A stretch of 64,000 nucleotides of DNA, taken from positions 32,001 to 96,000 of the IMG/VR virus record IMGVR_UViG_3300036715_003254; one strand, given 5' to 3'. The notes below the pieces were generated by a model. It had not been told where the DNA came from. It did not search any database and saw only the letters and a program-made list of their open reading frames with translations. Source of the stretch: a virus. Shown here one piece after another: positions 1,178-56,734 of this stretch (positions are counted from its first letter, which is position 1; the number at the start of each line of letters is the position of its first letter). A program made the translations under genes and the position numbers.

Positions 1178-1179
1178 AA

Positions 1180-32425: not shown

Positions 32426-32477
32426 TTTTACCTCAAATAAATATTGTGAACCGAAATTATTTATTTGGAGATAAAAA

Positions 32478-41000: not shown

Positions 41001-44000
41001 ATCCAAAGGAATTCTTCTTATCAAATAGTTACCACCGTCAGCAACATATAAGTTTGCTTCATTTGCGTCAACAGCAATGTCATAAACAGCTTTAAATCTA
41101 GCAGTAGCTGTAGGAGCTCCATCTGCATAACCAGAAGAGTTATATGAACCAGCTATTGTAGTAACATTTGGATTATTTGGAAGACCTGTTATTTTTCTTA
41201 CTGTATAACCACCGCTATCAACAAAGTAGAATACACCAGAAGCACCAAGACAACCACCTGAAGGGTTATTACAAGTAGCGTTAGATCCTGCTCCGTCTGC
41301 ACCACCAGCTGTACCAACATTCGCTCCAGAAGCACCAGCAATTGTTGAAGTTGAATAAGAGTTATTTATAGCCGCAGATCTAATTCTGTTACCAGCAGCT
41401 TCACAAATATACATAGTCGAATTGTCTGGAGTAAGAATAACATCAGTCGGACCATTCAATCTTGAAGAACCTTGACTACCATCAGCATAACCAGCTGTAG
41501 CGTTTGGAGCAGCAGCACCAACAACAGTAGTAGTAGCACCAGTAGCTATAGTTACCTTTCTAATTGCGTGGTTACCTGTATCAGCAACATATAGATAATT
41601 TCCGTCGTTTGTTACTGCTACACCTTGAGGACCATTAAATGCTGAACCAGCACCGTTAGTACCATCAGTAAAACCAGAAGTACCAGTACCAGAAATAGTA
41701 GAAACAGCGCCTGTACTCATATCAATTTTTCTAATTTTGTGGTTACTAGAGTCGGCTACATAAAGTATACTACCGTATTGAGCAATACCTTTATGGCTGT
41801 TAAATGACGCCGGAGTACCAGATGAATATCCTTGGAAGTTTCCTGAAGATCCAGAAGTAAGACCAGAATATGTAGAAACTTGACCTGTAGCAATTACAAT
41901 TCTTCTGATTGCGTTATTTCCTGTATCAGCAACTAGTAGAGAATCTGAAAGTGGACCTTGACCTAGACAAATTTGTTTAGGTGAATTAAATTTTGCTGAA
42001 GTAGAGTTACCATCAACAAAACCACTAGCTCCACCAGCAAGAGTTTCAACCCTAGCAGTAGCAACATCTATTTTTCTAATCGCATTGTTTCCGCTATCAG
42101 TAACATAAAGAGTATTAAAGTCTTTTGAGAAACATAGAGCAACAGGAGTATTAAATGAAGCGTTTAGACCTTCACCATTAACAAAACCGCTAGAACCTGT
42201 ACCAGCAAAAGTTATAGTATTACCTGTAGCTAATTCTACTCTTCTTATTTTGTTATTGGCAGTATCAGCAACATACATATATTTAGAAGCTGAATCAACA
42301 ACAACATTATATGGAGAGTTAAATGACGCTTGAATTCCAACAGCAGGACCATCAGCAAAACCAGAAGCACCTGAACCAGCAACAGAAGTTATAATACCAG
42401 TTTTATTATCTAGTTTTCTTACTTTATTTCCATCTGTAAAATAAACTGCATTATTTGCTTCGTCTAGATAACAGAAATTTGGAGAAGCAAGAATAGCTTG
42501 AGAATATTGACCAACACCATCCATAGAACCAGTGTTACCGGTTCCAACAATAGTTGAAAGAGCGTAACCTGAAGTTGAAACTCTTCTGATTTTATTTGAT
42601 TTTGTATCAGCAACATAGATATAATCAGCAGTTGGAGATACACAAAGACCTAGAGGACCATTAAGAGTACCATTAGTACCTGTACTGTTATCAGTAGAAC
42701 CAGCAGAACCAGAACCAGCAATTGTATAAACAGCACCAGTTTGAGTCATAATTTTTCTGATTTTATTATTACCTGTATCAGTAACATATAGTATATTACC
42801 AGATTTATCACAAGTAATATCTGTAGGTGAATAGAAGCTAGCATTTAGACCTGTACCGTCAGTACCACCTATTGCACCAGAAGGAGAACCAGCAAGAGTT
42901 GTAGTAGCACCATTTAGTGGATTTACTTTTCTAATTCTTTGGTTACCTGTATCAGCAACATATAGATATTGGTCGTCACAAGTAATGCCTGTTGGTTGGA
43001 AGAATGAAACAGCGCTTCCAGTGTTACCATCAACATTATATTGAGGTCTGTTTATACCTGCATTATCTTGATTTAATTGAGAAACAGCATTTAGACCAGT
43101 ACCAGCTACAGTAGCAACCACCCATTGTGAAAGAGTAGAGTTATAAGTTAGACTTCTAATTTTGTTTGAGTTAGTATCTGCAACATATAGAACGCCGTTT
43201 AGTTGAGTAATACCTTGAGGATAGTTAAATGTAGCAGAAAGACCATTTCCATCAAGAGAAGAATTATCTCCAGAACCAGCGATTGTAGTAACAGTATTAT
43301 TACTCAAATCTATTTGTCTAATCATATTATTACCAGTATCAGCAACAAATAGTTTTGTATTAGTTTGGTCTAGACAAATACCTTTAGGAAGGTTAAATGT
43401 TGCGCTTGTACCAGCTCCGTTTAGAGAACCGAATTGTCCTGTACCAGCAATAGTAGAAACCACACCAGTAGCAATATCGTATTTTCTTATTTTGTTGTTT
43501 TTAGTATCAGTAAAGTATACTGTAGTACCATCAGAACATACGCCTCTAGGTTCATTAACTTCTGAAGCCATAAAGTAACCAGCACCATCAGAGTAAGAAG
43601 CATTTCCATCTCCAGCCATAGTAGAAATGAAGAAGTTATTATTTAGCTCAAGTCTTCTTATTGCGTGGTTTGTTGTATCTGAGAAATATAGACAGTTTGA
43701 AGTTGCATCATATTCCATATGTGAAATGACACCAAAACTTGCTGCCATACCAAAGCCGTCAGTAAGATTTGAGTTTCCGTTTCCGGCTATCAACATAATA
43801 GTATTTGTTATTGGGTCATATCTTTTGATTTTATATGTGTTAGCATCAGCTATATAGTAATATCTACCATCATAAGCCGTAGCAGATACTAGACCAAAAG
43901 AAGCAGAATAAGGAATAGAAATACCATCTCCATAAGAAACTATACCAGCACCAGCAAGAAGATTTACTTCTTTTGTTAGAGTATTAATAGCTCTTATTTT

Positions 44001-45677
44001 TGAGTTTCCTGTATCAGCAACAAATGCAGTTTTACTGTCTTGAGATACAAAAATATCAAAAGGATTGAAGAATGTTGCTAGAACACCTATACCATCAGTA
44101 GAACCAGCAGTACCTGAACCATAAACTGAGAAAACAGTATTACTTCTAAGGTCTATTACTCTTATTTTGTTGTTATTGACATCAGCAACATAAAGTTGTT
44201 CAAATCCGTCAAAAGCTATTCCTGAAGGATAGTTAAATGTAGCAGCATTTACTGGACCATCATAAGAACCAGCAGAACCTGTACCAGCAACAGTAGTTAC
44301 GCCGAAATTTGCTGATTTTAGATCTATCTTTCTAATTTTGTTAGCAGAAGCATCAGCAACAAAAAGGAATTGATTTGTTTCGTCTAATGCTAGAGAAGTC
44401 AATTGACTGAATGTAGCATTTAGACCTTTTTCAGAGTCTGTAGATCCGAATGTTCCAACAACACCAGCTATAGTAGAAACAACATTATTAGTAAGATCTA
44501 TTCTTCTTACAACATTGTTATTTTGGTCAGCAACATAAGCCATATTTGTTGTTTTATCTATACAGATATCAACAGGACTAGCAAATTGAGCTGAAGCAAT
44601 ATCTCCGTCAAGATAACCAGCAGAAGAAATACCTGCTACAGTAGTAGCTGAGCCATCAGCAACACTTACTTTTCTTATACAGTTATTACCCATATCAGCA
44701 ACATAAATGAAACCTGAATAGTAGAATAGTCCTCTAGGTTGATTGAATTTAACCTTTGAAGCGATTCCATCAACATATCCTGGAGTTCCACCAATACCGC
44801 AAAGAGTAATAGTTTTATTATTTGTTTGGTCTATTTTTCTTATACAGTGATTAGCTGTATCAGCAACATAAACATAAGTACCATCGTATGTTACACCTTT
44901 CGGAGTATTAAACATAGCTATTTTTTGATCACCTATATCAGTGTCACAGAAAATAGATGTTTGTGAAATATTTCCAGAGAATGGTCTTACTTCTCCTGTA
45001 GCAACAATATATTTTACTATTGTTCCGACTTGAGTTATATAAAGATCTGTACCATCAGTAGTAACATATCTTGGAGAGTTAAGTTGAGCATTAGTACCAA
45101 ATCCAGGTTTAAAACCAGCATTTCCAGAACCAGCAAGAGTTAAAACTTCAAGAGTAGTAAGGTCAAGAACTCTTAGTTTATGTTGTGCTTGTTGAACAAA
45201 GTAAAGTTTTCCATTCAAATAAGTTATACTTACACCAGATTGAATAGTAGCTGATATTCCTATACCATCTTGAGAACTAGAAGAACCAGAACCAGCAAGA
45301 GTAATTACCTCTCTACTATTTAAATCAATTTGTCTGATTCTACAACCAGCATTTTCTATAACATACAGTTTGTCTGTACCGTTTGTTGTTATACCATAAG
45401 GGTTGTTGAATGAAGCATTTATTCCGAAACCGTCTATTGAAGCATTAGAACCAGAGCCGAAATATGTTTCAGTCATTCCAGTATCCATATCAACAGTTCT
45501 AATTCTGTGGTTATTAGAATCCGCAATGTACAATTTATTACCAACAATTACTTGAGCTGTTGGAGTATTAAAAAGTGCAGTTGCAAAAGAACCATCTTTA
45601 TTAGTGTTAGCTGAATAAAGATTGTTTACTGTTGATTTTGGAACTGAAGGAAAAATTGGAGCAGTGTTTGCACTCAT
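35040..45677 (-). CDS. Giant (3545 aa) NHL-repeat multi-beta-propeller virion protein with an internal Kelch-type propeller
   Basis: Dozens of F..P.GI....LYVAD..N..IRKI....V.T.AG.G..G..DG repeats; LPDGRI..GG repeats at ~39000-39900; RBS AGGAG. Confidence 0.88.
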   Translation of the reverse strand: MSANTAPIFPSVPKSTVNNLYSANTNKDGSFATALFNTPTAQVIVGNKLYIADSNNHRIRTVDMDTGMTETYFGSGSNASIDGFGINASFNNPYGITTNGTDKLYVIENAGCRIRQIDLNSREVITLAGSGSSSSQDGIGISATIQSGVSITYLNGKLYFVQQAQHKLRVLDLTTLEVLTLAGSGNAGFKPGFGTNAQLNSPRYVTTDGTDLYITQVGTIVKYIVATGEVRPFSGNISQTSIFCDTDIGDQKIAMFNTPKGVTYDGTYVYVADTANHCIRKIDQTNNKTITLCGIGGTPGYVDGIASKVKFNQPRGLFYYSGFIYVADMGNNCIRKVSVADGSATTVAGISSAGYLDGDIASAQFASPVDICIDKTTNMAYVADQNNNVVRRIDLTNNVVSTIAGVVGTFGSTDSEKGLNATFSQLTSLALDETNQFLFVADASANKIRKIDLKSANFGVTTVAGTGSAGSYDGPVNAATFNYPSGIAFDGFEQLYVADVNNNKIRVIDLRSNTVFSVYGSGTAGSTDGIGVLATFFNPFDIFVSQDSKTAFVADTGNSKIRAINTLTKEVNLLAGAGIVSYGDGISIPYSASFGLVSATAYDGRYYYIADANTYKIKRYDPITNTIMLIAGNGNSNLTDGFGMAASFGVISHMEYDATSNCLYFSDTTNHAIRRLELNNNFFISTMAGDGNASYSDGAGYFMASEVNEPRGVCSDGTTVYFTDTKNNKIRKYDIATGVVSTIAGTGQFGSLNGAGTSATFNLPKGICLDQTNTKLFVADTGNNMIRQIDLSNNTVTTIAGSGDNSSLDGNGLSATFNYPQGITQLNGVLYVADTNSNKIRSLTYNSTLSQWVVATVAGTGLNAVSQLNQDNAGINRPQYNVDGNTGSAVSFFQPTGITCDDQYLYVADTGNQRIRKVNPLNGATTTLAGSPSGAIGGTDGTGLNASFYSPTDITCDKSGNILYVTDTGNNKIRKIMTQTGAVYTIAGSGSAGSTDNSTGTNGTLNGPLGLCVSPTADYIYVADTKSNKIRRVSTSGYALSTIVGTGNTGSMDGVGQYSQAILASPNFCYLDEANNAVYFTDGNKVRKLDNKTGIITSVAGSGASGFADGPAVGIQASFNSPYNVVVDSASKYMYVADTANNKIRRVELATGNTITFAGTGSSGFVNGEGLNASFNTPVALCFSKDFNTLYVTDSGNNAIRKIDVATARVETLAGGASGFVDGNSTSAKFNSPKQICLGQGPLSDSLLVADTGNNAIRRIVIATGQVSTYSGLTSGSSGNFQGYSSGTPASFNSHKGIAQYGSILYVADSSNHKIRKIDMSTGAVSTISGTGTSGFTDGTNGAGSAFNGPQGVAVTNDGNYLYVADTGNHAIRKVTIATGATTTVVGAAAPNATAGYADGSQGSSRLNGPTDVILTPDNSTMYICEAAGNRIRSAAINNSYSTSTIAGASGANVGTAGGADGAGSNATCNNPSGGCLGASGVFYFVDSGGYTVRKITGLPNNPNVTTIAGSYNSSGYADGAPTATARFKAVYDIAVDANEANLYVADGGNYLIRRIPLDASGNAGNVVTIAGNTSSQSSAGNQDGQGPGGGSYNALIGSVYSLFVDSTGQYLFMADTTNHVIRRMDLTSGDVETYAGINGTYGSADGIRKLAAFNSPIGVACASDGTVYVGDAYNHRVRKINPSTGFVSHVTGSIFAQPGSLDGKYGQQAVFSSYNATGQLPLNGNNICKIGGDVFVADNKNGLRRIASDGTVSTISTKPMFSVCTDGTNVFTLSANCILKYSGTGWTTESTLSGSYNTSTQTTNTCSSTASSNNYYTAGTKNSMVYSAGKIYVQTHDTFRVVDTSTGSAVQLSYNNTQNDCYGYYSPTASIPTFQSALRGLSFISKNVTAIADVRSVKLWNQATGDISILAGSALSGLQDGAQINLVTPTDNYDTFSNYPAKTTKLPDGRIVSIGGSTDGTNGIKTVKIGTVSGNSTTWVASTDFPEAGVIEHSVATLPDGKIIVLGGYTDSSNKTACGSYIGTVSSDNKITWTSISACPNGTADGLLVVSGSNVVYLSSKSSVIGKYTGSDVSWGSLFSALPNSGGGVTGKSAITLPDGRIFVTGGMYSGNCQSEAYIGVLGSDTINWTSVTNLPYTMAYHKSLVLSNGYVVLVGGQTGNGKASALVFFAIISNNTVSYIQGNNLDTAGIVDSLILLSSSDNRVILLGMGSSTSSYTATSEVGYLSIPPTFTSITGITTDGTNFYVCDSSTVRKITQNGIVTTIAGSVMTGFENGTGANATFSTTLNDIVYSSGANCLYVADAGNNVIRRIDLATGIVSIACGNGQTSMGTGEGINASVGTVMAMAYDATNQDLWFTAYSSGDSNAAVRKYNEATQQVITIAGSGNGSVINGNLLSSRFSSTMNGIIVDSKNKKVYVSDTGNNVVRVIDLGFLPYPQVFSYTGSGVSSQTGHVDYVTATGIGKLCSIDKDKFLAITASSLGLVKYDISKNFVSTIISSFADSYSTSPAKMTSSKTALGSFGLSSGYFSVGLDGNIYAYNRANYTITKYDTTTGEFSQFLGTHGASGSASNCPAYKTTFSETGTYNDSISNIVWEDANTVWFFGQPYVRRISFATDDCQTINSSNSYGSTDGQYGSFTIAHIPGAIYDSNDKLIYFTNSNISTAVTTVRSFDVNSYYVETYAGGTKYSGSGASNDGVRLRPLITYPSYLSLSEDGSKLYIGNWNSGDARMRRLDISTNLVDTVLGDGTSGSNDTYGNFTRVGNGVLTPFYKSGKVYFADYANYKVRVYDETTKLTSVVAGSGYSGYTEGKAAVGMFNYPMGIVVDTNGDIYVADSSNNRIRKISNGQITTFAGKGVAGFADGKPSEAMFNNPNGLAWSSDKSTIYVADTNNNRVRYIDKATGKVGTLFGNGSASTVDGIGDSAAINGPMHMVEFEGNLYVTEYSGHRIRKYGLSDKRVSVFAGDGTKGYIDGTGQANTRFNNPWGICVSNNRELYVAEYSNHVIRRIDIDTCTVLLIAGTPPNNSTSDTTYPGNVDGYNTSTKFNYPRGIVCTADGTSLYVADQSNYKIRRVYPQLNVMVQTWAGTGNSGYADGVNLIARMNNPRQFVLDGNGNMFIADSGNNVIRKMKLSTGFLTTIAGDTSGSSSDGTGWGIASDGPKSKFNYPAGIAFDGNFLYVADYSGYRIRKVNPYNGYTTTIAGSGQGFLDGNGTSASFYNPAKLSLDASKENLYIVDVGYSKIRVMDIQSGLVSTLVNTSGKSNSYGIGNIAQVPLNLTIHSQITWISPTQFLIGNSAYVSKVDISSKTLTMELGVGSYPGNCMGKKATYQSTPIGMTKVGSTWYVSDVTKIKTVDDATGISAYFAGNPFGQSGFVDGSGGLSAALFGSIADIKYSASRNALFILDSQYHKVRKIDLTTGKVSTLAGSNFGIAGYSDDTMKLVYAAGPYGSRLDTFKVRPTSTTGSTVVRFFLNNGGDVKIKENNSMIAEISVPSISTTETGAQSEFFYYPNLSLDSGMRVYATLGTATSYGPNSPIAVTVFGGDY

Positions 45678-45703
45678 ATATATTTTTCTCCTATAAAGTT
45701 AAG

Positions 45704-46114
45704 TTAAAAACCACCATAATTGGTAGCAAGAAGTTTGTTTACCGTCATTGAACTGTTTACAACATTTTGATACTCTTCTCCAAGACCTATTTTCTCCCAT
45801 TCGTTTTTATTCAATACATTTAGTGTAGTATTAGTAGAATTGATTTTTTTATAAATCGCTCCATCAAAGACTACTAGAGTATTTACTCTATAAAATGTAT
45901 TTGGTTTAAAAAATGGGATAGAAGTTTGAATAAAAGAAGTACCAGCATCAATTGCGTCGCCTAAAGTAGTGTCACCATTTAGACCAGCGTTTGAAATTTT
46001 TTGATAAGTACAGCCTGACGATACAACAAATATCAACTTACCATTAGGAATTTTATTAATTCCTGTTTCAGTATGATCTTTGAGATACCAAATTGGTTCT
46101 ACATTGTATGTCAT
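45704..46114 (-). CDS. Short adaptor protein carrying the shared N-terminal fibre module
   Basis: MTYNVEPIWYLKDHTETGINKIP..KLI matches the N-termini of ORFs 47774 and 51757. Confidence 0.7.
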   Translation of the reverse strand: MTYNVEPIWYLKDHTETGINKIPNGKLIFVVSSGCTYQKISNAGLNGDTTLGDAIDAGTSFIQTSIPFFKPNTFYRVNTLVVFDGAIYKKINSTNTTLNVLNKNEWEKIGLGEEYQNVVNSSMTVNKLLATNYGGF

Positions 46115-46138
46115 TTATTTACCTACCCTAGAGTTTTT

Positions 46139-46190
46139 TGCGTTACTTGGTATGTCACATTCCGTAAGGAGTTTAACGCAATATATTTAT
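46139..46190 (-). promoter_or_regulatory. Late promoter (ATAAATA) plus conserved structured 5' leader, copy 1
   Basis: The 21-nt core ACTTGGTATGTCACATTCCGT is identical to 51792-51812; closing stem TGCGTTA/TAACGCA. Confidence 0.75.
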
Positions 46191-46268
46191 TTTGTAGGTT
46201 TGATTACACTAAAATTTTTAATAAATAAAAGACACAAACTTTGTTTGTTCGTGTCAATCTTTTAATTT

Positions 46269-46562
46269 TTATACGCCCCAAATACCATAAGCTCTAAATA
46301 CAACTCCGGCAGCAGAAGCACTTACTATAACACTCTCTCCAGAAACTACTATAAGATCTGTTCTTTCTAAAGTATCGTTTGCCGATATTGTTGTTCCTGA
46401 TTCTATTTTATCTCCGCCTATAGTTATATTAATAGTAACAGAATCAGAAGTCGTATTACAAACATTTATAGCCATAGTAGCAGTTTTACCTACAGGCACT
46501 TTACACAAAACTGTATCTGTATTCGCCGCAGGTATTACACTTCCAAATTTTATTCCAGCCAT
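46269..46562 (-). CDS. Small beta-rich virion structural protein (copy 2)
   Basis: Same length as, and mostly identical to, 884-1177; TATAAATA at 46590-46597 on the minus strand. Confidence 0.7.
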   Translation of the reverse strand: MAGIKFGSVIPAANTDTVLCKVPVGKTATMAINVCNTTSDSVTINITIGGDKIESGTTISANDTLERTDLIVVSGESVIVSASAAGVVFRAYGIWGV

Positions 46563-46610
46563 TTTTATTTCCTCCTTTAGTTTTAATATTATTTATAAAA
46601 TATGACCTTC

Positions 46611-46640
46611 AAACCTACTACTGTAAAAGTAGTAGGCTTT
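46611..46640 (-). terminator. Hairpin after the 370-aa fibre gene
   Basis: CCTACTACT...AGTAGTAGG inverted repeat. Confidence 0.55.
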
Positions 46641-46661
46641 GAGCTTATATTTTAAACTCTA

Positions 46662-47774
46662 TTAAAATATACTTTCTATTGCTATTTCATCACCTTTAGA
46701 TAGAGCATCATTGAATGTTAAAGTAGTTCCATCTACAGACCAGTTTGAAGAAGCAAATCTAATACCGTTTTTATACACTACAAAATAAGAACCTTTTGGT
46801 CCATTTAGAGTGACTTTAGTTTGTCCATCGTCGGCTACTAATTCTTGAATATACGTAGGTATTGTACCGCCTGCAGTTATTAGACCTTTGCTGTTGACTG
46901 TAACTGAAGTATAAGTACCGGCTGTAACCACATTAGGTAGTGTAGCTGTAGCGCTAATATCACTTGAACCGTCAAAGGCCGGTGTAGTAAAGGAAATATC
47001 GCCAGTAACAGTTAAAACTCTACCAGTAGCCAATTTAGTCGCAGGAGTACTAGAAATAGCGCTAGTAACAAATTTTGTGGTGGCAATTTGATCTGTATTT
47101 GTTCCCGAATCGGCAGTTGGTGCAGTTGGTGTTCCTGTTAGAGCAGGAGACGCCAATGGAGCTTTAGTACCAACAACAGCAGTTAAAGCAGCGGCAGCTG
47201 ACTCATCATTTGCTAGTTGGTCGGCTATTTCTTTTAGTGTATCTAGTGTTGCCGGTGCGGAATTTACTAGATTAGCAATTGCTGTATCTGTATAAGACTT
47301 AGATGATGCTAATGTAGAAGTATCTTTACCATCTACTTCAGTTTTAGTATAAGCATCAGTAATACCGTAACCAGCAATAGTTGTAGGTTTATTTAGTATT
47401 TGAGCCGCACCACTAGATGCAGTCCAATCAGAGCTTACTTGCGGTCTAGCATTATAGAAAGGTTGAGAACTTATCCAAGTTTTTGTGTCAGCGATAGCAC
47501 CAGTAACGAAAGCTGTAGTAGCGATTTGGTCTGTATTTGTTCCAGCTGGAGCAGTTGGAGCGGTAGGAGTGTCGCCGCCAGCAATACATTTAAAAACGCT
47601 TGAGTTATTTATAACATCAGATATTTTAGTATCAGCTGTTATATTATCGTTACTTATTTTTGTAAAGAATTGTTTAGTACTCTGAATGTATATTAGTTTA
47701 AGCAGAGGTACTTTGTTTATACCTGTTTGATTTACATCATTAAAATACCAAACTGGCGATAAATTGTAAGACAT
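46662..47774 (-). CDS. Short fibre protein: shared N-terminal module, one fibre repeat, gp10-like C-terminal module
   Basis: Everything after about residue 68 aligns by eye with the 1180-4233 protein. Confidence 0.8.
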   Translation of the reverse strand: MSYNLSPVWYFNDVNQTGINKVPLLKLIYIQSTKQFFTKISNDNITADTKISDVINNSSVFKCIAGGDTPTAPTAPAGTNTDQIATTAFVTGAIADTKTWISSQPFYNARPQVSSDWTASSGAAQILNKPTTIAGYGITDAYTKTEVDGKDTSTLASSKSYTDTAIANLVNSAPATLDTLKEIADQLANDESAAAALTAVVGTKAPLASPALTGTPTAPTADSGTNTDQIATTKFVTSAISSTPATKLATGRVLTVTGDISFTTPAFDGSSDISATATLPNVVTAGTYTSVTVNSKGLITAGGTIPTYIQELVADDGQTKVTLNGPKGSYFVVYKNGIRFASSNWSVDGTTLTFNDALSKGDEIAIESIF

Positions 47775-47963
47775 TGTTATTCTCCTTTTTAAATATAACT
47801 TAAAACCTATTAAATATTAGGATTCTAGTTTATATATTTATTGTTCTGATGTCTTCAGTTAACGAGAGTTTTATTAAAGTAAGACAAAGTGTTTTGATTT
47901 TATTGTCTATAATTAGAAGAAAGAATATATAAACCAGTCAACTCCGTTTTATGGAGTGATAGT

Positions 47964-48236
47964 TTACTTATCTTCAACAAGCAATACTGTATCTTTACTG
48001 TATGGAACAATAGGTTTGAAATAAGGTTTTAAGTAAAAGTTTACTACTTTTCCTTTGTGTTCACCATAACAAAGCTTTGCTGTACCTATATACGCACCAT
48101 CTTTTATTTCACAAGACTGTACTACAGCATAATGTGTTCCTACTCTATCGTTTTTCCAGTCAACCCAATTTTGGTAATTAGTTGAGCAACCTGTTAATCC
48201 TAAAAGTACAAAAAAACCGATTATTAACTTTTTCAT
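47964..48236 (-). CDS. Putative lipoprotein
   Basis: MKKLIIGFFVLLGLTGC signal peptide II with lipobox. Confidence 0.75.
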   Translation of the reverse strand: MKKLIIGFFVLLGLTGCSTNYQNWVDWKNDRVGTHYAVVQSCEIKDGAYIGTAKLCYGEHKGKVVNFYLKPYFKPIVPYSKDTVLLVEDK

Positions 48237-48252
48237 TGTTTAATCCTTTTTA

Positions 48253-48600
48253 TTAAAATTTCCAACTAAACTGCGCAGTAATAGCGCTTCCTAATACAGA
48301 ACCAACTGTGTCAGCATAAACATCGTGAATATCTTCTGTTCCGTGACCTGCTGCATCCCATTTCTCTTTAGCAATTCCCACCAAAAGCCCAGAAGCGACA
48401 CCGATAGCAAAAGCTTCAAACTTATTAGCTCCATAGTATCGAGCTAATGCAGTAGCAGTTCCGCTAATAGCAGCAGTGGCAGCGATATGTTTTTGCTTAT
48501 CTTTTTGCTGAAAAAATGGTTCATCAGCGAAAAGCGAAGAAGAAAAAAATATTATCATTATTATTGTTTTTGATAAATTTCTCAACACAGTTTTAATCAT
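48253..48600 (-). CDS. YfiM/DUF2279-like secreted or membrane protein
   Basis: Signal peptide; DKQKH...GIAKEKWD...D..ADTVG pattern; C-terminal aromatic FSWKF. Confidence 0.65.
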   Translation of the reverse strand: MIKTVLRNLSKTIIMIIFFSSSLFADEPFFQQKDKQKHIAATAAISGTATALARYYGANKFEAFAIGVASGLLVGIAKEKWDAAGHGTEDIHDVYADTVGSVLGSAITAQFSWKF

Positions 48601-48851
48601 AGCTAAATTCTCCTATTTTTGAAATATGAAGCGCTTTTTAGTATTTTAATCGCATTTTTATAAACTTTTTTCGAATTCTATTTTTCATATAACTATAAGA
48701 ATTAGTTCAACTAAACTTCTATATAAAATTTTTAATATAGTTTAAAATATTTATATCTATTCATTTGATATTATTTAGCGATATTTTCTCTTTTATTATA
48801 ATTAGTCAATAGTCAAAACAGAAAATTATCAAATAATTATTGATAATTTAA

Positions 48852-48904
48852 TGTGCTTATATCACCGTCCTAAAGGACGGTGTTTTACGCACAAAATGGA
48901 TAAA
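48852..48904. repeat. ~53-bp palindromic element, copy 2
   Basis: TGTGCTTATATCACCGTCCTAAAGGACGGTGTTTTACGCACAAAATGGATAAA. Confidence 0.75.
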
Positions 48905-48961
48905 TAATCTCACACTCTGCTTTCTTTTTCTATAAGTCCAAGATCACTATGTCCGTAGGTA

Positions 48962-49273
48962 TTAGACGTTCGTACCACCAAACTTTTTTTGTAGTGACTT
49001 ATAGACACTTACATAGCCTCTTTCATCTGCTGAGTAAGGAACTTGATAATTGAACTCTTCTATCTTATTGAATACCTGTCTAGTAGTGGCTTCCTGAGCT
49101 GGTATGTTAAGCTCAGCATTTGCCGGCACTGCAGGTACAGCTTCTGTAGTAATGTTATAAACACCAACTAAACTATTCCACCCTTCTCGTTTGCTTCCAA
49201 ACAGTCTATCGATTCTGATATAAGCATCTTTTACTTCTATGCCATTGAAGTTGTAATTTGTTTGTATTGCCAT
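48962..49273 (-). CDS. Fibre-associated small protein (assembly chaperone-like)
   Basis: MAIQTNYNFNGIEVKDAYIRID type N-terminus; follows fibre genes. Confidence 0.5.
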   Translation of the reverse strand: MAIQTNYNFNGIEVKDAYIRIDRLFGSKREGWNSLVGVYNITTEAVPAVPANAELNIPAQEATTRQVFNKIEEFNYQVPYSADERGYVSVYKSLQKKFGGTNV

Positions 49274-49286
49274 TTTATTTTCCTTT

Positions 49287-49940
49287 TTATAGTATTTTTT
49301 GTACTGTACAAGTGCAACTTACTTTATCACTTGATGATGATTGAACTGATAATCTTTTTTGATTCCCGAAGTAAAATGTGTAACTAGGTTCATTATTCTC
49401 CGTCTTATATGTAGACTTATTTACACCAACTATTTGAATATCCTCTGAAGAAGAGGCATCAAAATGAACCGCAAAAACAAATGAAAAAACTTGCTCATAA
49501 GCAACATTATAAATGTCAAACCCGCGAACATTGGCGATATACGTTCCTCCTGATAAAGCTGGGGAAATAAATTGTTTTGAACTACAATCAGCATCGGATA
49601 ATGTAGAAATTATTGGAGTAAATAAATTGCTAGCGCTTATACTTCCATTAACCTGTAACTTATCAACACCATTATCTGTTGTTGTTCCTACTAATAAATT
49701 AACACCAGTGTCATATACAACACTATTTGAATTAATAGTTACTATGTGTTTTCCATTACAAGCAATACCGATATTGCCTTCTGCAATATGGTAGAAACCT
49801 GTATCATTTGAACTATCATTTTGAAATACTAGTCCTGGGGCGATATTCGTACCTTCCGGAATAAAAACCTGACCAGTAAATACTGGCGAGTTGATGTTTG
49901 CTTTTACATCATTAAGCTTATCTAGTGAATACTTAATCAT
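49287..49940 (-). CDS. Short tail fibre-like protein
   Basis: KANINSPVFTG...APGLVFQND..DTGFYH...NLLVGTTTDNGVDKLQVNGSI fibre motifs. Confidence 0.65.
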   Translation of the reverse strand: MIKYSLDKLNDVKANINSPVFTGQVFIPEGTNIAPGLVFQNDSSNDTGFYHIAEGNIGIACNGKHIVTINSNSVVYDTGVNLLVGTTTDNGVDKLQVNGSISASNLFTPIISTLSDADCSSKQFISPALSGGTYIANVRGFDIYNVAYEQVFSFVFAVHFDASSSEDIQIVGVNKSTYKTENNEPSYTFYFGNQKRLSVQSSSSDKVSCTCTVQKIL

Positions 49941-50299
49941 AGTGCGAATTCTCCTATTTTTTGGGGTCTAAAGTATTGTTTGGTATTCCCATCCATATCT
50001 TTATAGCTTATTGGCACATCATATGGGTACACAGATTTATATATAGCAAGAGCTTTATCGTTAGCAAACAGCTCTTCATATGTTCCAAGCACCTGTATTG
50101 ACTTCATAGTCTTTACAAAAGCTAATTCCTCATCTGTAAGAATTGATAGAGCCAAGCTCCCATTTTCGTTTTTAATGACTGGTGTGGTTTGGACATTCCA
50201 CCCAGTTACATTCCCTTCTCCATCTTTAACTTTATAGCTATCTGGAAGTTCATCCATAAAAGCTTTAGTATCTTTACAATACGTTATTACGTAATTCAT
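49937..50299 (-). CDS. Hypothetical protein downstream of the lectin-like fibre
   Basis: 120-aa ORF with RBS AGGAG. Confidence 0.6.
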   Translation of the reverse strand: MNYVITYCKDTKAFMDELPDSYKVKDGEGNVTGWNVQTTPVIKNENGSLALSILTDEELAFVKTMKSIQVLGTYEELFANDKALAIYKSVYPYDVPISYKDMDGNTKQYFRPQKIGEFAL

Positions 50300-50332
50300 T
50301 TGTTTCTCCTAAGGGTTTTATTGTTTATCAAA

Positions 50333-51757
50333 CTATGCAAGCGATACTTCGTATGCAGTTAATGCTCTATCATAAATTCGCAAATTTGTAATATGACCAT
50401 ACCAAAGTCTTCCTATCATAATACTAGAAGCAGTATCGCCTAAGTCGTTATATTGTTGTAATCTAGATTCTTTAGCCAATAATACTCCATTTTTGTAAAT
50501 ACTAGTTTGATTGTTTTTACTATCAGAAATTGCACAAATCCTTTTAGTAACAGTATCAAATGGAATATATGTATAAGCCAGCATATTAGTATTTTTACCA
50601 CCGTGACAATGAAAATCAGTACCATCTCCGTAGCCAAATATCAACGCGCCGTCGCCATTACTATTAATTGCGATTATAGAGCTCCAATCGCCGTCTTTTT
50701 TTCCTTTTATATCAAAGTCAGCAATAACGGTTCTCGAATCATATACGGACGGAAAGTTACCTTCTAGAGTGGCACTCAACATATCAGCTGCTCTAGTAAC
50801 AGTGCTAGAAGTTGTAGAAATATAGGATGTAGTAAATGGCAACGCTTCTAATTGTGCTCCATAGATGTTTACACCATTTCCTGTTTTATCTGTCGAAGAG
50901 TAGCTGTATATAACATTAACATATTTACGGTCAGAGGTAGTGACAGTGAAAGTCATACTAAGTCTTACCCACCCATTAGCTAATATTTGTACATTTTTAT
51001 CTTGTAGGTTATTGTTTTGATCTGTTAAAACTCCTGTGTCGAAGTTATAACTCAAATCACGTGAAGTACCGTCTGAGAAGAAAAATGACGGATACATTAT
51101 TCTTATTATAGAGTCTTCTGCTTTTTGAGCAAATATAGAAGCAGTATATGTTGTCCCAGCAGTTAACGAAAAATATGAAATATATATATTTTCCTCTGAC
51201 CCAGTTGTAGTTTTATAAAAATGATAAGCAGAGTTTGCTACACCGTCAGGACCAGTAACATTTTGAGTAATAGCAGAATTTTGAGTACTCCATTGTTCGA
51301 ATTGGTTTGAATAAGAAAATAGATTCGTACTATTACCTTCGTTCAAATAACCTTCTTTTTCAAATCTAGGTACATCTATACCAGCTGTTTTTAGAACACC
51401 ATATCTATCTATATAAGTAGCAGTTGAAGCTCTTGAGAATGTAACACTACCTGTACCAGACCTCATAGCCAAAGAGTTTTTTAGTGGAAGATCTAGCAAA
51501 GGATTATGGATATTACCAATAGCCATTTGAAGATCAGAATTGTTAGCTTTTAGGTCAACTTCTGCTGCATTCTTAAAATTACTCGGATTTCTTAAAAGGT
51601 CAGTTACAGTAGAAGTACTTGTTAAACCGTCATTACTTAACTTTTTAAACATTTTTCCAGTACTTTGGATATGTATTAACCTGTTTAGAGGCACTTTGTC
51701 AATGCCAGTTTGATTTACATCAGAAAATTCCCAAATGGGAGATTTGTTATATGCCAT
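50333..51757 (-). CDS. Fibre/spike protein with shared N-terminal module and ConA/LamG-like lectin domains
   Basis: Likely start MAYNKSPIW at 51757 (RBS GAAGGA). VTFSRASTATYID...PRFE...EGNSTNLF; GAQLEALPFTTSYI.T....VTRAAD; GHITNLRIYDRALT. Confidence 0.8.
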   Translation of the reverse strand: MAYNKSPIWEFSDVNQTGIDKVPLNRLIHIQSTGKMFKKLSNDGLTSTSTVTDLLRNPSNFKNAAEVDLKANNSDLQMAIGNIHNPLLDLPLKNSLAMRSGTGSVTFSRASTATYIDRYGVLKTAGIDVPRFEKEGYLNEGNSTNLFSYSNQFEQWSTQNSAITQNVTGPDGVANSAYHFYKTTTGSEENIYISYFSLTAGTTYTASIFAQKAEDSIIRIMYPSFFFSDGTSRDLSYNFDTGVLTDQNNNLQDKNVQILANGWVRLSMTFTVTTSDRKYVNVIYSYSSTDKTGNGVNIYGAQLEALPFTTSYISTTSSTVTRAADMLSATLEGNFPSVYDSRTVIADFDIKGKKDGDWSSIIAINSNGDGALIFGYGDGTDFHCHGGKNTNMLAYTYIPFDTVTKRICAISDSKNNQTSIYKNGVLLAKESRLQQYNDLGDTASSIMIGRLWYGHITNLRIYDRALTAYEVSLA

Positions 51758-51781
51758 TTTATTTCCTTCCTCAAAAATTTT

Positions 51782-51837
51782 TCGCGTCGCGACTTGGTAT
51801 GTCACATTCCGTGAGGAATTTTACGCGATATATTTAT
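51782..51837 (-). promoter_or_regulatory. Late promoter plus conserved structured 5' leader, copy 2
   Basis: Same 21-nt core as 46145-46165; closing stem TCGCGT/ACGCGA. Confidence 0.75.
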
Positions 51838-51879
51838 TATACTATAATTGAGTTTAAAGATTTATCAATAAATAAATTC

Positions 51880-51950
51880 GGCAAAGACCCCAACTAAGAC
51901 TTGGGCGCAGAACTTGTCATTCTGCTTAAAACTTTGACCCTTGACAATTA
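51880..51950 (+). promoter_or_regulatory. Structured 5' leader of the sheath gene (multi-stem junction plus possible pseudoknot)
   Basis: CAAAG/CTTTG, CCCAA/TTGGG and GCAGAA/TTCTGC stems; loop TTGTCA is complementary to downstream TGACAA; AATAAATA promoter just upstream. Confidence 0.55.
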
Positions 51951-51965
51951 TAAGGAAATATAAAA

Positions 51966-53441
51966 ATGGCTACTATGCTTTCTCCTGGTGTTTATACACA
52001 CGAAATTGATATGAGCATAATTGTACCGTCAGTATCTTCTGCTACTGGTGCATTTGCTGGGTTATTTAAAAGAGGTCAAGTTGGTGTATACAAACTTGTT
52101 TCTTCTGTTGACGATTTGATATCTAATTACGGTGAACCTACAGATTCAAATTATAATGACTGGTTCCAATGCTATTCGTTCCTTCTTTACGGAAGCTCTC
52201 TTCTTGTTTCTAGAGCAATCGATAGTAATGGATCACTAGTTTCAACCACTTCAACAGTAACAGATGCTGCTGCTTCTGGTTCAAAAACTGTTTCAATAGA
52301 CCATATTACTAATTTTTCTGAAGGTGATAAAATTGTTTTTAACGGCGATAGAACTCACATCTATACAATAGACAAAGTAAATTCTTCAAGTGTTGATCTT
52401 GTAGAAACTCTTGCTACTGCTGTTGATAAGAATTCTCTTGTAGAAAAATTTGTTAAAGCTACAAACGCAGCTGTTGAAGCCAAAAAAGTAGGTGGCACTG
52501 CTCCGTATGCGCTAGCTCTTAAAAAACTTGGAATATTTGTTCCAAATTCTCAATACTTTGAAGATTTTAACGCTAGTTTTGGTGTTACCGATGCTAATAA
52601 TGTTGCTCTTCAATTTATAGCGAAAGATCCAGGCGAATTTGGTAACAATATCACTATCTCTATCGGTAATACAGCTGATTTCACTAATGGTTCTACTTCT
52701 CAAGCTCTTCCTGGAGTTCTTTTCAGTCAACTATTTGACAGATATCCTACAACTACTGAAATAGCTATCGTTATTTCTGTTGGTGGCGTTATGGTAGAGA
52801 AATTTATTGTTTCTCTTGTTCCAGGAACAAAAGACTATACAAATAGATCTACTTACATCGAAGATGTACTAAACAGACAGTCTAACTATGTGTATGTGGT
52901 TCACAACAAATTAACAACTACTGTTGCTTCTGCGCTAGCTAACGATTCTACAACTCTTAAACTTGCTTATGGTAATTCTGGTCTTCCAAATACTGATGAC
53001 ATAGAAGTAGCATATGATGTATTCTCTAATAAAGAAGAAGTTGATGTAGATATAGTTATAGCTAATGAACAAGCGCATCTTGCGGCGGCTACTCTTGCTA
53101 TGAATAGAGCTGACTGTATATGCTATGTAGGCGCAAAATATGAGAATGTAATCGGTCTTAAATCTTCAGACATTGTTGCTAAACAAATAGCATATATAAA
53201 CGATTCAAATTCGCCAATGAACCTAAACACTTCATTTGTTGCGTTCTATGATAATTACACACAATTCTATGATAAATGGAATGATAAGTTAAGATGGTGT
53301 AATGTTGCTGGTCTTATTGCTGGCGCAAGAGCTAAAACTTCTTATAACTTATCAGAGTCTGAGGCTTCTGCAGGTCTTATTAATGGCGTGCTAAAAGGTA
53401 TAACAAAGCTTTACTACAGTCCAAACTCGGGGCAAAGAGAT
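51966..53441 (+). CDS. gp18: Tail sheath protein gp18, exon 1
   Basis: MLSPGVYTHEID...FLLYGSSLLVSRA...YDKWNDKLRW...SAGLING...PNSGQRD; homology breaks after QRD. Confidence 0.92.
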
Positions 53442-55208
53442 TGGTGTGCCCGTTTAAAAAGAATAATAAATAACTGAAAGGTTATATAAAACACACAGAC
53501 CTAAAACTTCGGAACTTTTAGGTCTATTTCATAACCTTTAATTAAAATTAAAGGCACTTCAATGAAACAACTTCAACAAGACATCCAAAACTATCTAAAC
53601 AAATTCGGAAACGATGCTCTTACCTCAAACGCTCTCGTTATAAAAAGAAGAAAAGACGACATTATAAATTTCACTAGTTTTCTTCCGGAAGATACAAAAA
53701 TGATGGAAAGAGTTTATATCATTTTCCACGAAATTAAATTAGAAGACCTAGCATGTAAAATATGTGGAAAGAAAAGAAAATTTCGTTCATTCGTGAAAGG
53801 CTTTAACAAAACTTGTGGAAATGGTTCTTGTAACTCAGCTTATGGTTCATTATACTCTACAGATCAAACTAAAAGAGTAGCAAAAATGAATGAAACAAAA
53901 AGTCTTCATACAGAAGAACGAAGAAAAGAAATAAGACAAAAATGTGATCAAACAAAAAGAGAAAGATACGGTGAAGATTATCGTAGATTAGAAGGATTAA
54001 AGGGTTATAAAAATGCTTTAGAAAGAGGAACTTTCTATTCTCCATTCCAAGAATGGTCTAATACAAATAATAAAGAAAAAATCAAAGAAACACATTTAAA
54101 AGCTGCAAAAACACTTAAAAGTAAAATTGATGAAAATGGATTAGATCATTATGATAGAATTCATCAGAGGAAACTAAATGATATAGATAAAAATGGATTA
54201 GATCATTACAACAGAATTCATCAGAGGAAACTGAATGATATAGATGAAAATGGACTAAATTACTATCAAAGACTACATATAAAAAGATTGAACGATATAG
54301 ACGAAAACGGACTAAATTACTATCAAAGACTACATATAAAAAGATTGAACGATATAGACGAAAACGGATTAAATTTCTACCAAAGACAAACTGAAGCACA
54401 ATATAATTCTGGAAGATTTACTAGACCAGAAGATAAAGACGATTTTCAACATTACAGATACAAAGTTTATAAATGTATGAAAAAATTCGATGAGCAGATA
54501 AAGAAGCTTCCGGATTATGATTTAAGAGGACATGCAAATAAAGCAGGTTCATACCATCTAGACCATAAATTTTCAATACACGAAGGCTTTAAAAACTGTG
54601 TTCCGCCATACATCATAGGTAATATAGCTAATCTTGAAATGATTTCTGCTAGAAACAATCTATCTAAAAATAGAGCTTGTTCGATTGATCTTGATACTTT
54701 AATAAACAACCTAGTCTGGTAAAAACAGACTAGGCTTCCTAAATAGTTACATCTAATGAAACTGAAAACTAAAAGCAAATATATTCTCTTAAACCTATAT
54801 CACAAAAACAACCAAAATAAATAATCTGTGTGTTTTTATATTAAACACTTACTGTTCCGAAGGCAGTAATGTTCTTATTCTTTTTATTGTTATAAAAAGG
54901 TCTCGCCATATAGTGATATATGGAAAAATTAATCTATCTAATTGCTGGAAAATCCTTAGAGTCTATTCAACTACAAAGTAAGATGAAAATCTAAGCTTGA
55001 ATGTTTAAAAATGAATAGAATTGGACAATCAGCAGCCAAGCTACTTTAAAATGTAGAAGGTTCAACGACTAGAACGAAAGTTCGTACACTCGAGTGAGTG
55101 GAAATGGTAGACATCTAGAAATAGATGAAGATATAGTCTAATCTTATAGGAAACTATAAGCAGCAGTAAATGCGGTATTTGTGTAACGAACAAATGCGAA
55201 TATAAAAG
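53442..55208 (+). mobile_element. Group I intron in the tail sheath gene
   Basis: Exon ends in U and intron ends in G. Core elements: P AATTGCTGGAAA (54940-54951), Q AATCAGCAG (55027-55035), R GTTCAACGACTAGA (55060-55073), S AAGATATAGTC (55128-55138). IGS AAAAGGTCTC (~54895-54904). Splicing restores QRD|LLYKSRVNPVV in frame. Confidence 0.92.
53562..54722 (+). CDS. Intron-encoded HNH homing endonuclease
   Basis: CKICG...TCG..SC zinc motif, tandem 19-aa IDENGL repeats (57 bp), C-terminal YHLDHKFSI...NLEMISARNNLSK HNH motif. Confidence 0.85.
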   Translation: MKQLQQDIQNYLNKFGNDALTSNALVIKRRKDDIINFTSFLPEDTKMMERVYIIFHEIKLEDLACKICGKKRKFRSFVKGFNKTCGNGSCNSAYGSLYSTDQTKRVAKMNETKSLHTEERRKEIRQKCDQTKRERYGEDYRRLEGLKGYKNALERGTFYSPFQEWSNTNNKEKIKETHLKAAKTLKSKIDENGLDHYDRIHQRKLNDIDKNGLDHYNRIHQRKLNDIDENGLNYYQRLHIKRLNDIDENGLNYYQRLHIKRLNDIDENGLNFYQRQTEAQYNSGRFTRPEDKDDFQHYRYKVYKCMKKFDEQIKKLPDYDLRGHANKAGSYHLDHKFSIHEGFKNCVPPYIIGNIANLEMISARNNLSKNRACSIDLDTLINNLVW

Positions 55209-55625
55209 CTTTTATACAAAAGTAGGGTAAACCCTGTAGTAAATTTTGTCGGACAAGGTAAAGTTATCTGGGGACAAAAAACTCTTAATGGTTATGCTAG
55301 TGCGTTTGACAGAGTTAATGTTAGATGCCTATTCAATAAACTTGAAAGAGTTATCTCTAAAATGGCTAATGCGTTCTGTTTCGCAAAAAACAACGAATTT
55401 ACAAGAGAAAGATTCAAATCAACTATTACTCCGGTTCTTGCTCAAGATCCTGGTGTAGATCAGTTCTATATCGACTTAAGTAAGAATACTCCTGAAGTAA
55501 TAGCTAGAGGCGAATTTATTGTTAATATACTTATAAAACCAGTATATACAATGGAATTCATATCTCTTGGGTTTACAGCGGTAGGAAATTCGCTCAAGTT
55601 CGAACAGGTGGTACAATCCATCTAA
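55209..55625 (+). CDS. gp18: Tail sheath protein gp18, exon 2
   Basis: LLYKSRVNPVVNFVGQGKVIWGQKTL...SAFDRVNVRCLF...NNEFTRERF...NTPEVIARGEFIVNILIKP...FISLGFTAV, the canonical gp18 C-terminus. Confidence 0.92.
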   Translation, partial: LLYKSRVNPVVNFVGQGKVIWGQKTLNGYASAFDRVNVRCLFNKLERVISKMANAFCFAKNNEFTRERFKSTITPVLAQDPGVDQFYIDLSKNTPEVIARGEFIVNILIKPVYTMEFISLGFTAVGNSLKFEQVVQSI

Positions 55626-55645: not shown

Positions 55646-56734
55646 TTAAGACTTATAGCTTTTTCTTCCTTTTACCCAACCTTTAGTTACTTCTTCTGGT
55701 AATAATGTTTTACATATTTTAAGCTTATCATTATGATACCAACTTTTTCCTAGATTGGTTTTCATTTTTTCGGGATCCATATTCACAATCCTGCCTCTTC
55801 TAAACCCTTTATTCAAAAATTCTTCTATTCTGTCTTTCTCTACCTGAAAACTATCTACACCATTTGTCATCCAAACAGTACCTAAATTATTTTGTGTCTT
55901 CCCTTTAACCCAGCCATCATTTAAATACTCTTCTAACTCTTCTTGCTTAATGGATATACTTTCTCTACCCTTCTTTATCCAAATACGCCCAAAAGCACCA
56001 CTATTTTCTCCTCTTCTTTTCTCAGCATATTTTTCTCTTTCTTCAGGAGTTAAACTTTGATAATATTTCTTTACTGCAGCTGCTCTCTTTTCTATGGTTT
56101 CTTTAGAAGGTTTATAACCTTTCAAACTTTCTGAAGTTTTTCTACCTTTTCTCTGATAACCAGTTAAACCGTCTTCGCCTACTTCAGACAGCTTTTCTTT
56201 TGTTTTTTGGATTATGAGTTCTTGAACAGACATTCCATTTTCTAAAATAGTTTCCTTCCTAGTTTTATAACCACGTCTACCACTATCCTGAGCATTAGTC
56301 AATCCATTCTCTAGAACTGTTTCCTTTCTAGTTTTCGCCGCCTTTAAAGCCGCCTTTTTATATTCACTCAAACCATTTTCATCAACAGTTTTAAATTTTT
56401 CGAAAATCTCTCTGTTAACTTTCTCAAAAAGTCTCGAATTAGTAATCTCTCCCCATCCTCTTTTTTCTGATGTGTGTTTTAGCTGCCAAAGAGCATAAAC
56501 CATTTTTCCACCAAAAATTCTAGCTAGCATTATATGAGCTATAAAATGAGCTCTGTAAGATAGATTAACACCATTCCAAGGATATAAATTAAGATTTTCA
56601 TATTCAGGAAATAACGCTCTTAGTAGTATATGATGTTTATGAGTATGAGTTTTACTTAATGTATTAAACTTCTTACAAAAGTTTATATACCTTTTCGAAA
56701 GGTTAGTGTTTGGTAGGAAGCTTTCTATGTTCAT
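55646..56734 (-). CDS. Free-standing HNH homing endonuclease (Mob-like) with C-terminal DNA-binding repeats
   Basis: N-terminal HKHHILLR...NGVNLSYRAHFIAHIMLARI; ENGL repeats; NUMOD-like (PSKETIEK) and W..NG...GW.KGR repeats. Confidence 0.85.
   Translation of the reverse strand: MNIESFLPNTNLSKRYINFCKKFNTLSKTHTHKHHILLRALFPEYENLNLYPWNGVNLSYRAHFIAHIMLARIFGGKMVYALWQLKHTSEKRGWGEITNSRLFEKVNREIFEKFKTVDENGLSEYKKAALKAAKTRKETVLENGLTNAQDSGRRGYKTRKETILENGMSVQELIIQKTKEKLSEVGEDGLTGYQRKGRKTSESLKGYKPSKETIEKRAAAVKKYYQSLTPEEREKYAEKRRGENSGAFGRIWIKKGRESISIKQEELEEYLNDGWVKGKTQNNLGTVWMTNGVDSFQVEKDRIEEFLNKGFRRGRIVNMDPEKMKTNLGKSWYHNDKLKICKTLLPEEVTKGWVKGRKSYKS

Follow-up and report, generated by a model that had tools for sequence, protein, structure and literature searches.

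What do two receptor-binding genes of an uncultured phage hold in common ahead of their start codons, and might it act as DNA or RNA, as sequence or fold? The question arises in a stretch of 64,000 nucleotides (the window), bases 32001-96000 of a 138,481-bp IMG/VR virus record (94% complete by CheckV, 32% G+C). Two minus-strand genes in it, here termed A (ATG at 46114) and B (ATG at 51757), encode the same N-terminal anchor domain and are each preceded by a similar leader. An earlier note had described these leaders as a conserved, covarying RNA, an uncharacterized cis-regulatory RNA or operator coordinating which appendage is made. What holds of this description is that the leaders of two anchor genes contain an uncharacterized non-coding element under selective constraint, whereas the covarying fold has not stood up.

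The leader sequences on which that description was built were all found on the minus strand where it had placed them. From 5' to 3', leader A comprises a late promoter box, AATAAATATAT (46181-46191; predicted transcript start near 46178), the 5' arm of an outer stem, P0 (TGCGTTA, 46174-46180; 8 bp if 46181 is counted), a hairpin, P1 (TCC-TTAC-GGA, 46161-46170, -2.0 kcal/mol), a 21-nt core (46145-46165) holding the near-palindrome GGAATGT-G-ACATACC at 46149-46163, the 3' arm of P0 (TAACGCA, 46139-46145), and an A-rich spacer with a Shine-Dalgarno-like GGGTAGG (46128-46122) and the ATG (46112-46138 in all). Leader B follows the same plan, with a late box (51828-51838; predicted start near 51825 by the T4 rule described below), a P0 5' arm (TCGCGT, 51823-51828), P1 (TTCC-TCAC-GGAA, 51807-51818), the core (51792-51812), the P0 3' arm (ACGCGA, 51782-51787), and a spacer of A/T runs with the Shine-Dalgarno sequence GAGGAAGGA (51772-51764) and the ATG (51755-51781). 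A further hairpin, P2 (GTGAC-ATACCAA-GTCGC, 51789-51805), is present in B and broken in A.

From promoter box to core end, A and B form an ungapped block of 47 nt, identical at 43 positions. The core is the same in both leaders, as had been claimed, and occurs at only these two sites in the genome even when up to three mismatches are allowed; within the window, none of 100 shuffles gave two matches at that tolerance, and an 18-mer of the core has two matches in the 138,481-bp genome as against none for its reversed control. The leaders are indeed better conserved than the coding regions behind them, with 49 of 63 columns identical between A and B compared with 49% nucleotide and 38% amino acid identity over the first 60 codons. 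A comparison within the phage suggests what is particular to them. The late leader of the scaffold gene, which lies outside the window (genome 30173-30234, minus strand; L051:10173-10234), reads GTTAAA..TCCTTACGGAA followed by an A-rich tail like that of leader A, TCCTTACGGAA being an 11-mer found at P1 of leader A. Relative to this leader, A carries insertions of 12 nt (ATGTGACATACC) and of 7 nt (the 3' arm of the outer stem). Because the scaffold leader lacks both stretches, the core is an insertion into an otherwise ordinary late leader, and one specific to anchor genes.

The strongest evidence comes from outside the phage. A 5.5-kb contig of another uncultured phage from a different metagenome (L019) has the element as well, 33 nt upstream of an anchor gene whose product is 74% identical to that of B at the amino acid level. 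Eighteen nucleotides of the core, ACGGAATGTGACATACCA, are unbroken and unaltered there. The B and L019 leaders are identical in 51 of 67 columns, whereas in the 60 codons next to them third-position identity is only 0.45, a value no different from that of the distant paralogs. Since the core is unchanged despite this divergence, the leader is constrained and not just young, and the element is therefore under selection. In all three copies, the core ends 30-34 nt ahead of the ATG. L019 has no AATAAATA promoter box in the preceding 700 nt, between its position 892 and the leader, where a hairpin and the end of a fiber gene are found instead; a box is present before the next gene. Thus, the element is tied to the start codon rather than to the promoter, and this fixed distance is our main argument for an action on mRNA.

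Such an action requires that the late transcript include the element. The earlier note had placed a late promoter ahead of both leaders, and both the enrichment of AATAAATA and a gp55-like sigma factor bear this out. The motif occurs 33 times genome-wide and is found in sense in 25 of 163 upstream 100-nt regions, those that bear it preceding head, tail, baseplate, and fiber genes. It corresponds to the late consensus of T4 in the form that has A at -13, described as common among T4 relatives (PMC1524935); the rule given in the same source puts the TATAAATA-like box at -13 to -6 and permits A or T at -13. The phage encodes the gp55-like late sigma (10550-11284; phrog_234, E 1.8e-23) and a sliding clamp (phrog_223, E 5.4e-21), and a gp33-like match at 7459-7743 is weak (PF16805, 20.3 bits, under the cut-off of 25). 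Taken together, these features support AATAAATA as the T4-type late promoter of the phage. Its extended form, AATAAATA followed by TAT, as at leader A, occurs five times in the genome, each time ahead of a tail or fiber gene, and sigma-70-like matches in the region show no excess (27 versus 27.9 in shuffles). By the T4 rule, the starts fall within the 5' arm of the outer stem, upstream of hairpin and core, leaving the first two bases of that arm in A and three of its six in B ahead of the start. On the basis of the box enrichment, the gp55-like sigma, the clamp, and the T4 spacing, the transcript should include the element. Most late leaders of the phage have 19-42 nt between box and ATG, and these two are long, at 77 nt in A and 81 nt in B, as is the 68-nt leader of a third anchor gene, C.

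We therefore favor, tentatively and at somewhat less than even chances, the view that an anchor cassette carries in its 5' untranslated region a cis element that is recognized by its sequence and acts on translation or mRNA stability. The element would belong to a cassette of leader plus N-terminal anchor domain in the receptor-binding protein genes of a T4-like phage related to the Eucampyvirinae, where it would set translation initiation, mRNA lifetime, or both. We infer that a trans-acting factor, most plausibly a protein, would read ACGGAATGTGACATACCA on the mRNA mainly by its sequence, a conserved fold being less likely to matter. A separable addition may be formed by the TCCT upstream of the core, which could form base pairs with the core's GGA or, alternatively, with the Shine-Dalgarno sequence and so open or close the ribosome site. 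In B, the Shine-Dalgarno region (TGAGGAA) could also pair over 7 bp with the 5' arm of P1 (TTCCTCA), and L019 has 6 bp (TTCCTT/AAGGAA); the two pairings differ by one C-G to U-A double change and are present in the minimum-energy folds of both leaders. The outer stem would be a further addition, specific to the promoter-proximal copies, that may seal the late transcript at its 5' end. What the sequences show is the conservation, the placement ahead of the ATG, and the late-promoter context; the remainder of this reading is inference.

Several points weigh against this reading. Three copies in only two phages are in hand, so statistics on covariation or on key positions are impossible, and the late transcript starts are predicted from the T4 rule. 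Scans of 158 phage proteins against PHROG gave no candidate binding protein and no RegA-like repressor, and CsrA was not found among the phage-encoded proteins. Leader A offers little anti-Shine-Dalgarno pairing (4-5 bp, judged by eye), its Shine-Dalgarno region also lacks a second GGA, and runs of pyrimidines and purines pair trivially. A third anchor gene in the window manages without the element, and the linkage between leader and anchor could mean common descent of the cassette.

Moreover, the invariant block coincides with a near-palindrome in the DNA, which an operator would fit equally well. The ATGTGACATACC insertion and the GGA before it create this 15-bp near-palindrome, in which six of seven half-site positions are symmetric. 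A dimeric protein bound to it, at about +16 to +30, might block or time late transcription. The near coincidence of the invariant 18 nt with the 15-nt palindrome, the confinement of its degenerate form to these two sites in the genome, and the mere -1.4 kcal/mol that the same bases yield as an RNA hairpin would all argue for such an operator. Nevertheless, we consider it distinctly unlikely, as L019 retains the element with no late box in the preceding 700 nt, and orientation and distance to the ATG are fixed in all three copies, which a symmetric operator would not need. The only DNA-binding candidate recognized is a protein of the HU/IHF type (PF00216), with no sequence-specific repressor, and by a rough estimate, a palindrome of this kind has a few-percent chance of arising in a 21-nt block. 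Operators are not known from T4-type late promoters.

The earlier note had pointed to an outer stem that encloses a hairpin and whose pairing is kept. Spelled out, this would be a folded riboregulator, a small three-way junction maintained by compensatory change and sensing a ligand or factor. The outer stems do exceed shuffled sequence, the perfect 8 bp of leader A being reached in 64 of 20,000 shuffles of the 3' segment and the 6 bp of leader B in 482 of 20,000, and leader B can be folded as P0, P1, and P2 together at -17.4 kcal/mol. In addition, each of the three substitutions between B and L019 within P1 and P2 either lies in a loop or replaces a U.G pair with U-A. The case for covariation, however, comes down to one pair. 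The 5' arms of P0 in A and B differ at two positions only, around an invariant GCGT/ACGC center, and the one true compensatory change, U-A in A to C-G in B, is at -2 if the T4 spacing holds. The outside homolog lacks the stem altogether, with only a 4-bp self-complementary ACGT, which 11,080 of 20,000 shuffles reach. Covariation thus fails as evidence for a fold, being a single pair between paralogous copies.

RNAalifold on the three leaders, an alignment with little power to detect covariation, keeps P1 (TTCC/GGAA) and P2 (GTGAC-7 nt-GTCRC); not one of the 10 pairs shows a compensatory change, and the covariation term is positive (+0.89). Shuffled sequences fold about as well as the leaders do (z from +0.68 to -1.73 over seven folds). 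P1 is weak, at -2.0 to -2.5 kcal/mol, and P2, for which B and L019 give -5.5 and -5.9 kcal/mol, comes to +0.5 in A, where it is broken by a G.A mismatch and its 3' arm is taken by A's own outer stem. The set of helices thus differs from copy to copy, with P0 in A and B only and P2 in B and L019 only, which indicates that sequence is conserved and not fold. Rfam holds no family at the leaders, consistent with the earlier view of an uncharacterized element and a further point against a riboregulator; for 45000-53000, three matches were returned, all below threshold (E no better than 1.5), including one at 20.3 bits (threshold 43) that lies across from leader B on the other strand. On this evidence, a folded riboregulator is improbable. 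The case carries a general caution, in that two paralogs with one compensatory pair can mimic a covarying RNA of which the sole outside homolog fails to form the fold.

As a separate matter, a 5'-terminal helix was considered as a general trait of late leaders and is speculative; z fell below -2 in only one of nine long leaders, and that one holds a terminator-like hairpin.

The surroundings of the two leaders have features of their own. Opposite the box of leader A, a plus-strand AATAAATA box (46220-46227) lies 28 nt away and overlaps the T-tail of a terminator-like hairpin upstream of the leader (46231-46255, minus strand; nine pairs, then a T-rich tail). The same 28-nt spacing separates box B from the divergent late box (51867-51874, plus strand, a AATAAATA match) of the tail-sheath gene (51966-53477). 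The opposite-strand box at leader A points into the terminator-like hairpin and the antisense of a fiber gene, and back-to-back boxes on opposite strands are also found at 32436/32465.

Features of this kind raise the question of whether the leader is an element of control at all. It might instead be a patch of homology at the 5' edge of the exchangeable anchor module, a crossover point at which receptor-binding modules are shuffled, of the kind proposed for PeSL sequences (PMC4122927), that has hitch-hiked with the cassette, is kept uniform by gene conversion, and has no regulatory role beyond that of an ordinary leader. The context of L019 is mosaic, its leader and B-type anchor coming after a gene whose C terminus matches that of the 370-residue fiber of the window (67%), so that the element there occupies the position of leader A and not of B. 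Homology between B and L019 has its upstream limit precisely at the leader, the 100 nt ahead of it being 55% identical with many gaps. The two copies in the window form a direct repeat, 5.6 kb apart, on either side of the receptor-binding gene cluster, and the equal spacing of the opposite-strand boxes at A and B would suit a copied divergent-promoter patch. We nevertheless regard this explanation as unlikely. Beside a third-codon identity of 0.45, the invariant 18 nt would call for a recent transfer spanning only about 25 nt, gene conversion does not account for identity across phages unless exchange is very frequent, and no joint between the repeats is found among the joints listed from four metagenome runs (15 of 29).

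A last alternative concerns the origin of the core, which the earlier note had likened to the start of the gene at 46114. The core (..ATG TGACATAC CAA GT..) would then be a decayed copy of the anchor start (ATG ACA TAC AAT GT) that a partial tandem duplication left behind. The two are identical over the eight bases TGACATAC, with a best local alignment score of 9, and in B the core GTG shares the reading frame of the gene. Of 2,000 shuffles, 84 attained this score, which was also the best of 12 comparisons, and the likeness is thus within chance; furthermore, the frame is not open in A or L019, and invariance across phages is not expected of a relic. Such an origin is highly improbable.

Other candidates for the role of the core were tried and set aside. 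An N-terminal extension from the core GTG would be open in B only, and a small opposite-strand protein is not indicated, as the two plus-strand open reading frames (ORFs) that cross the core do so in different frames. With regard to a pairing partner in trans, the best non-self duplexes in the phage genome (-22.3 and -21.8 kcal/mol) lie within the range of 12 shuffled cores (-18.5 to -24.7). No exact 17-nt complement of the core was found on either strand of representative prokaryote genomes.

If a protein reads the core, as the favored reading would have it, one family offers a partial precedent. A-N-GGA is the invariant part of CsrA-type sites (PMC6692469), and ACGGA, which fits it, is invariant in all three copies and also present in the scaffold-gene leader. 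Like CsrA/RsmA sites such as that in the Campylobacter flaA leader, the element could, in A and B, present this motif in a loop of 5 nt that YAC/GUG(A) closes, and the nearest isolated relatives of the phage infect Campylobacter. The loop-presenting hairpin, at -0.5 kcal/mol in A and -2.7 in B, is broken in L019 (+1.1), however, and a second GGA, at the Shine-Dalgarno region, is present in B and L019 and absent from A. The C. jejuni consensus, mAwGGAs, is matched at A and GGA only. CsrA would in any case account for at most about nine of the 18 invariant bases. A more elaborate proposal is an assembly-feedback operator. The core on the mRNA would be bound by free anchor/adaptor protein that has yet to dock or, alternatively, by a CsrA-type protein of the host, freed through a partner switch of the kind seen with flagellin, and translation of the two anchor operons would thereby be throttled. 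We hold this to be quite improbable. If true, it would match the amounts of alternative appendages that compete for the same baseplate sockets and would constitute a new phage-specific class of RNA operator tied to a swappable structural module.

Among known systems, the translational operators and inhibitory leaders of T4 (RegA, gp32, and gp43; genes e, soc, 49, and I-TevI) are likewise short cis elements near the ribosome site in late or middle mRNA. In the inhibitory leaders, the late promoter is similarly at or inside the 5' strand of the helix, and occlusion of the Shine-Dalgarno sequence is possible (PMC3014915). In the leaders of genes e, soc, and I-TevI, a helix buries the Shine-Dalgarno sequence or the AUG, and late transcripts lack its 5' strand. 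The outer helix here excludes the Shine-Dalgarno sequence and the AUG, whereas the candidate anti-Shine-Dalgarno sequence lies downstream of the predicted late start and so would be kept in late transcripts. Nor is there a RegA-like protein in the PHROG scans, or similarity of sequence among isolated phages, to ally the element with the T4 operators.

PeSL elements are conserved patches of promoter and stem-loop, repeated at the borders of variable genes and implicated in modular shuffling (PMC4122927; PMC2839356); they consist of a terminator and an early, sigma-70-type promoter in hyperplastic early-gene regions (PMC4122927). The leaders of the window resemble them as short repeated patches at the borders of variable genes and differ in having a late promoter, in that the conserved part is downstream in the leader, and in that the genes are structural. 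A terminator-like hairpin is, moreover, found ahead of leader A only. The put-type antiterminator RNAs of HK022 occur as two copies just past two promoters, with small adjacent hairpins, before long operons. There is some likeness in the two copies downstream of promoters and in the operon that has a 10.6-kb gene; unlike put, the hairpins here are of 3-5 bp, there is no similarity, and no downstream terminators were identified, although these were not specifically searched for.

Searches for further copies returned little. Among isolated phages (50,697 records), neither megablast with 6.4 kb of the locus nor blastn with the 83-nt leader gave a match. In IMG/VR, an exact 18-mer had no matches, and an exact 17-mer had two, the L019 contig and a chance match in an 847-kb contig. 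The 17-mer was found in 24 stretches of metagenome contigs and six of genome contigs, none in a leader-like context, and protein-based locus searches (with the 474-residue protein of gene B, an anchor alignment, the 136-residue protein of gene A, and the L019 protein) retrieved only the L019 contig, with none from genome contigs. The core is absent from 16 relatives of the sheath gene (30-44% identity). The P1 motif follows none of 146 late-type boxes in 17 loci (those 16 and L049), three matches with two mismatches looking like chance. A profile search yielded no further copy in the genome or the loci (nhmmer, three-sequence profile). Upstream of a distant anchor gene (E 9.8e-8), the sequence is unrelated, and in Campylobacter phages, rbp1 starts 23 nt after the preceding gene, with no leader. 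No description of the element was found in the main texts, supplements aside, of literature on Campylobacter-phage late promoters, PeSL, Fletchervirus receptor-binding proteins, and tail-fiber leaders. So far, then, it is a novel phage mRNA leader element of a familiar kind, with three copies in two uncultured phages.

The genes served by the leaders bear on what such an element might mean. Gene A (45704-46114, minus strand) encodes a 136-residue anchor/adaptor, the N terminus of which matches phrog_13044 and the N terminus of receptor-binding protein 1 (RBP1) of Campylobacter phages, described as a shared head domain (PMC10877375). Just 26 nt downstream, with its own ribosome-binding site, is a giant gene (35040-45677, minus strand) for a protein of 3545 residues, which probably shares its transcript with leader A. 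This protein, which carries NHL/teneurin-type β-propeller repeats (PF01436, E 1.8e-96), is likely a giant receptor-binding fiber docked via a separate adaptor. Gene B (50333-51757, minus strand) encodes a 474-residue tail protein that has the anchor at its N terminus and is lectin-like at its C terminus. The third anchor gene, C (46662-47774, minus strand; 370 residues), has the phrog_13044 domain in common with A and B and an extended late box (47842-47832), 68 nt from its ATG, behind which the leader differs and lacks the core. This gene has the same box and no element, and no finding here bears on the proposal that the element chooses the appendage.

The host range of phages is set by receptor-binding proteins swapped as modules, and very little is known of how phages balance several of them. 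A leader moving with the anchor module would give a handle on such control, and transplants of the module would need the leader moved too.

All 38 of 38 records matching the anchor by tblastn are the RBP1 N terminus of Campylobacter phages (33-47.5% identity), and since the anchor matches nothing else, the phage is taken as a distant relative of the Eucampyvirinae. PHROG and Pfam scans of its proteins assign it to the T4-type myoviruses. Its replication genes include a gp32-like single-stranded DNA-binding protein, clamp, clamp loader, UvsX/UvsY, topoisomerase II, and a split DNA polymerase; its structural genes encode major head, scaffold, baseplate, sheath, and tube proteins. The metagenomes that hold it are from sediment and microbial mat. 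The receptor-binding cluster appears highly variable in the population. In four metagenome runs (X1-X4), window positions 45700-52000 matched 110-318 related contig pieces per run, most below 95% identity, with rearrangement joints within the fiber genes; related contigs in public runs have small insertions at 51763/4 and 51776/7, in the spacer of leader B. Paralogs of 97 residues (phrog_11338, tail fiber) at 884-1177 (plus) and 46269-46562 (minus) each lie beside a long fiber gene, and the 1022-residue fiber (1165-4233) and the 370-residue fiber of gene C have a C-terminal domain in common with an ORF of L019.

The tail-sheath gene next to leader B is apparently split into a 503-residue N-terminal part (51966-53477) and an 87-residue C-terminal piece (55362-55625), both on the plus strand and both matching sheath family phrog_23. 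Between them are a 386-residue ORF (53562-54722) and a group I intron (RF00028, 54884-55160, 85.4 bits, E 2.5e-20), the only match at gathering level in an Rfam scan of the whole window, and an HNH homing endonuclease gene adjoins the region on the opposite strand (55646-56734). The DNA polymerase is likewise in two ORFs, parted by an opposite-strand homing-endonuclease gene (L053:5750-9290; genome 121750-125290), as is the large subunit of ribonucleotide reductase (two ORFs, L051:1919-4078). Four tandem small heat-shock genes of the Hsp20 family (L052:13743-15563; genome 109743-111563) and two GroES-like genes (L051:5333-6031) together make an unusual chaperone load for a phage.

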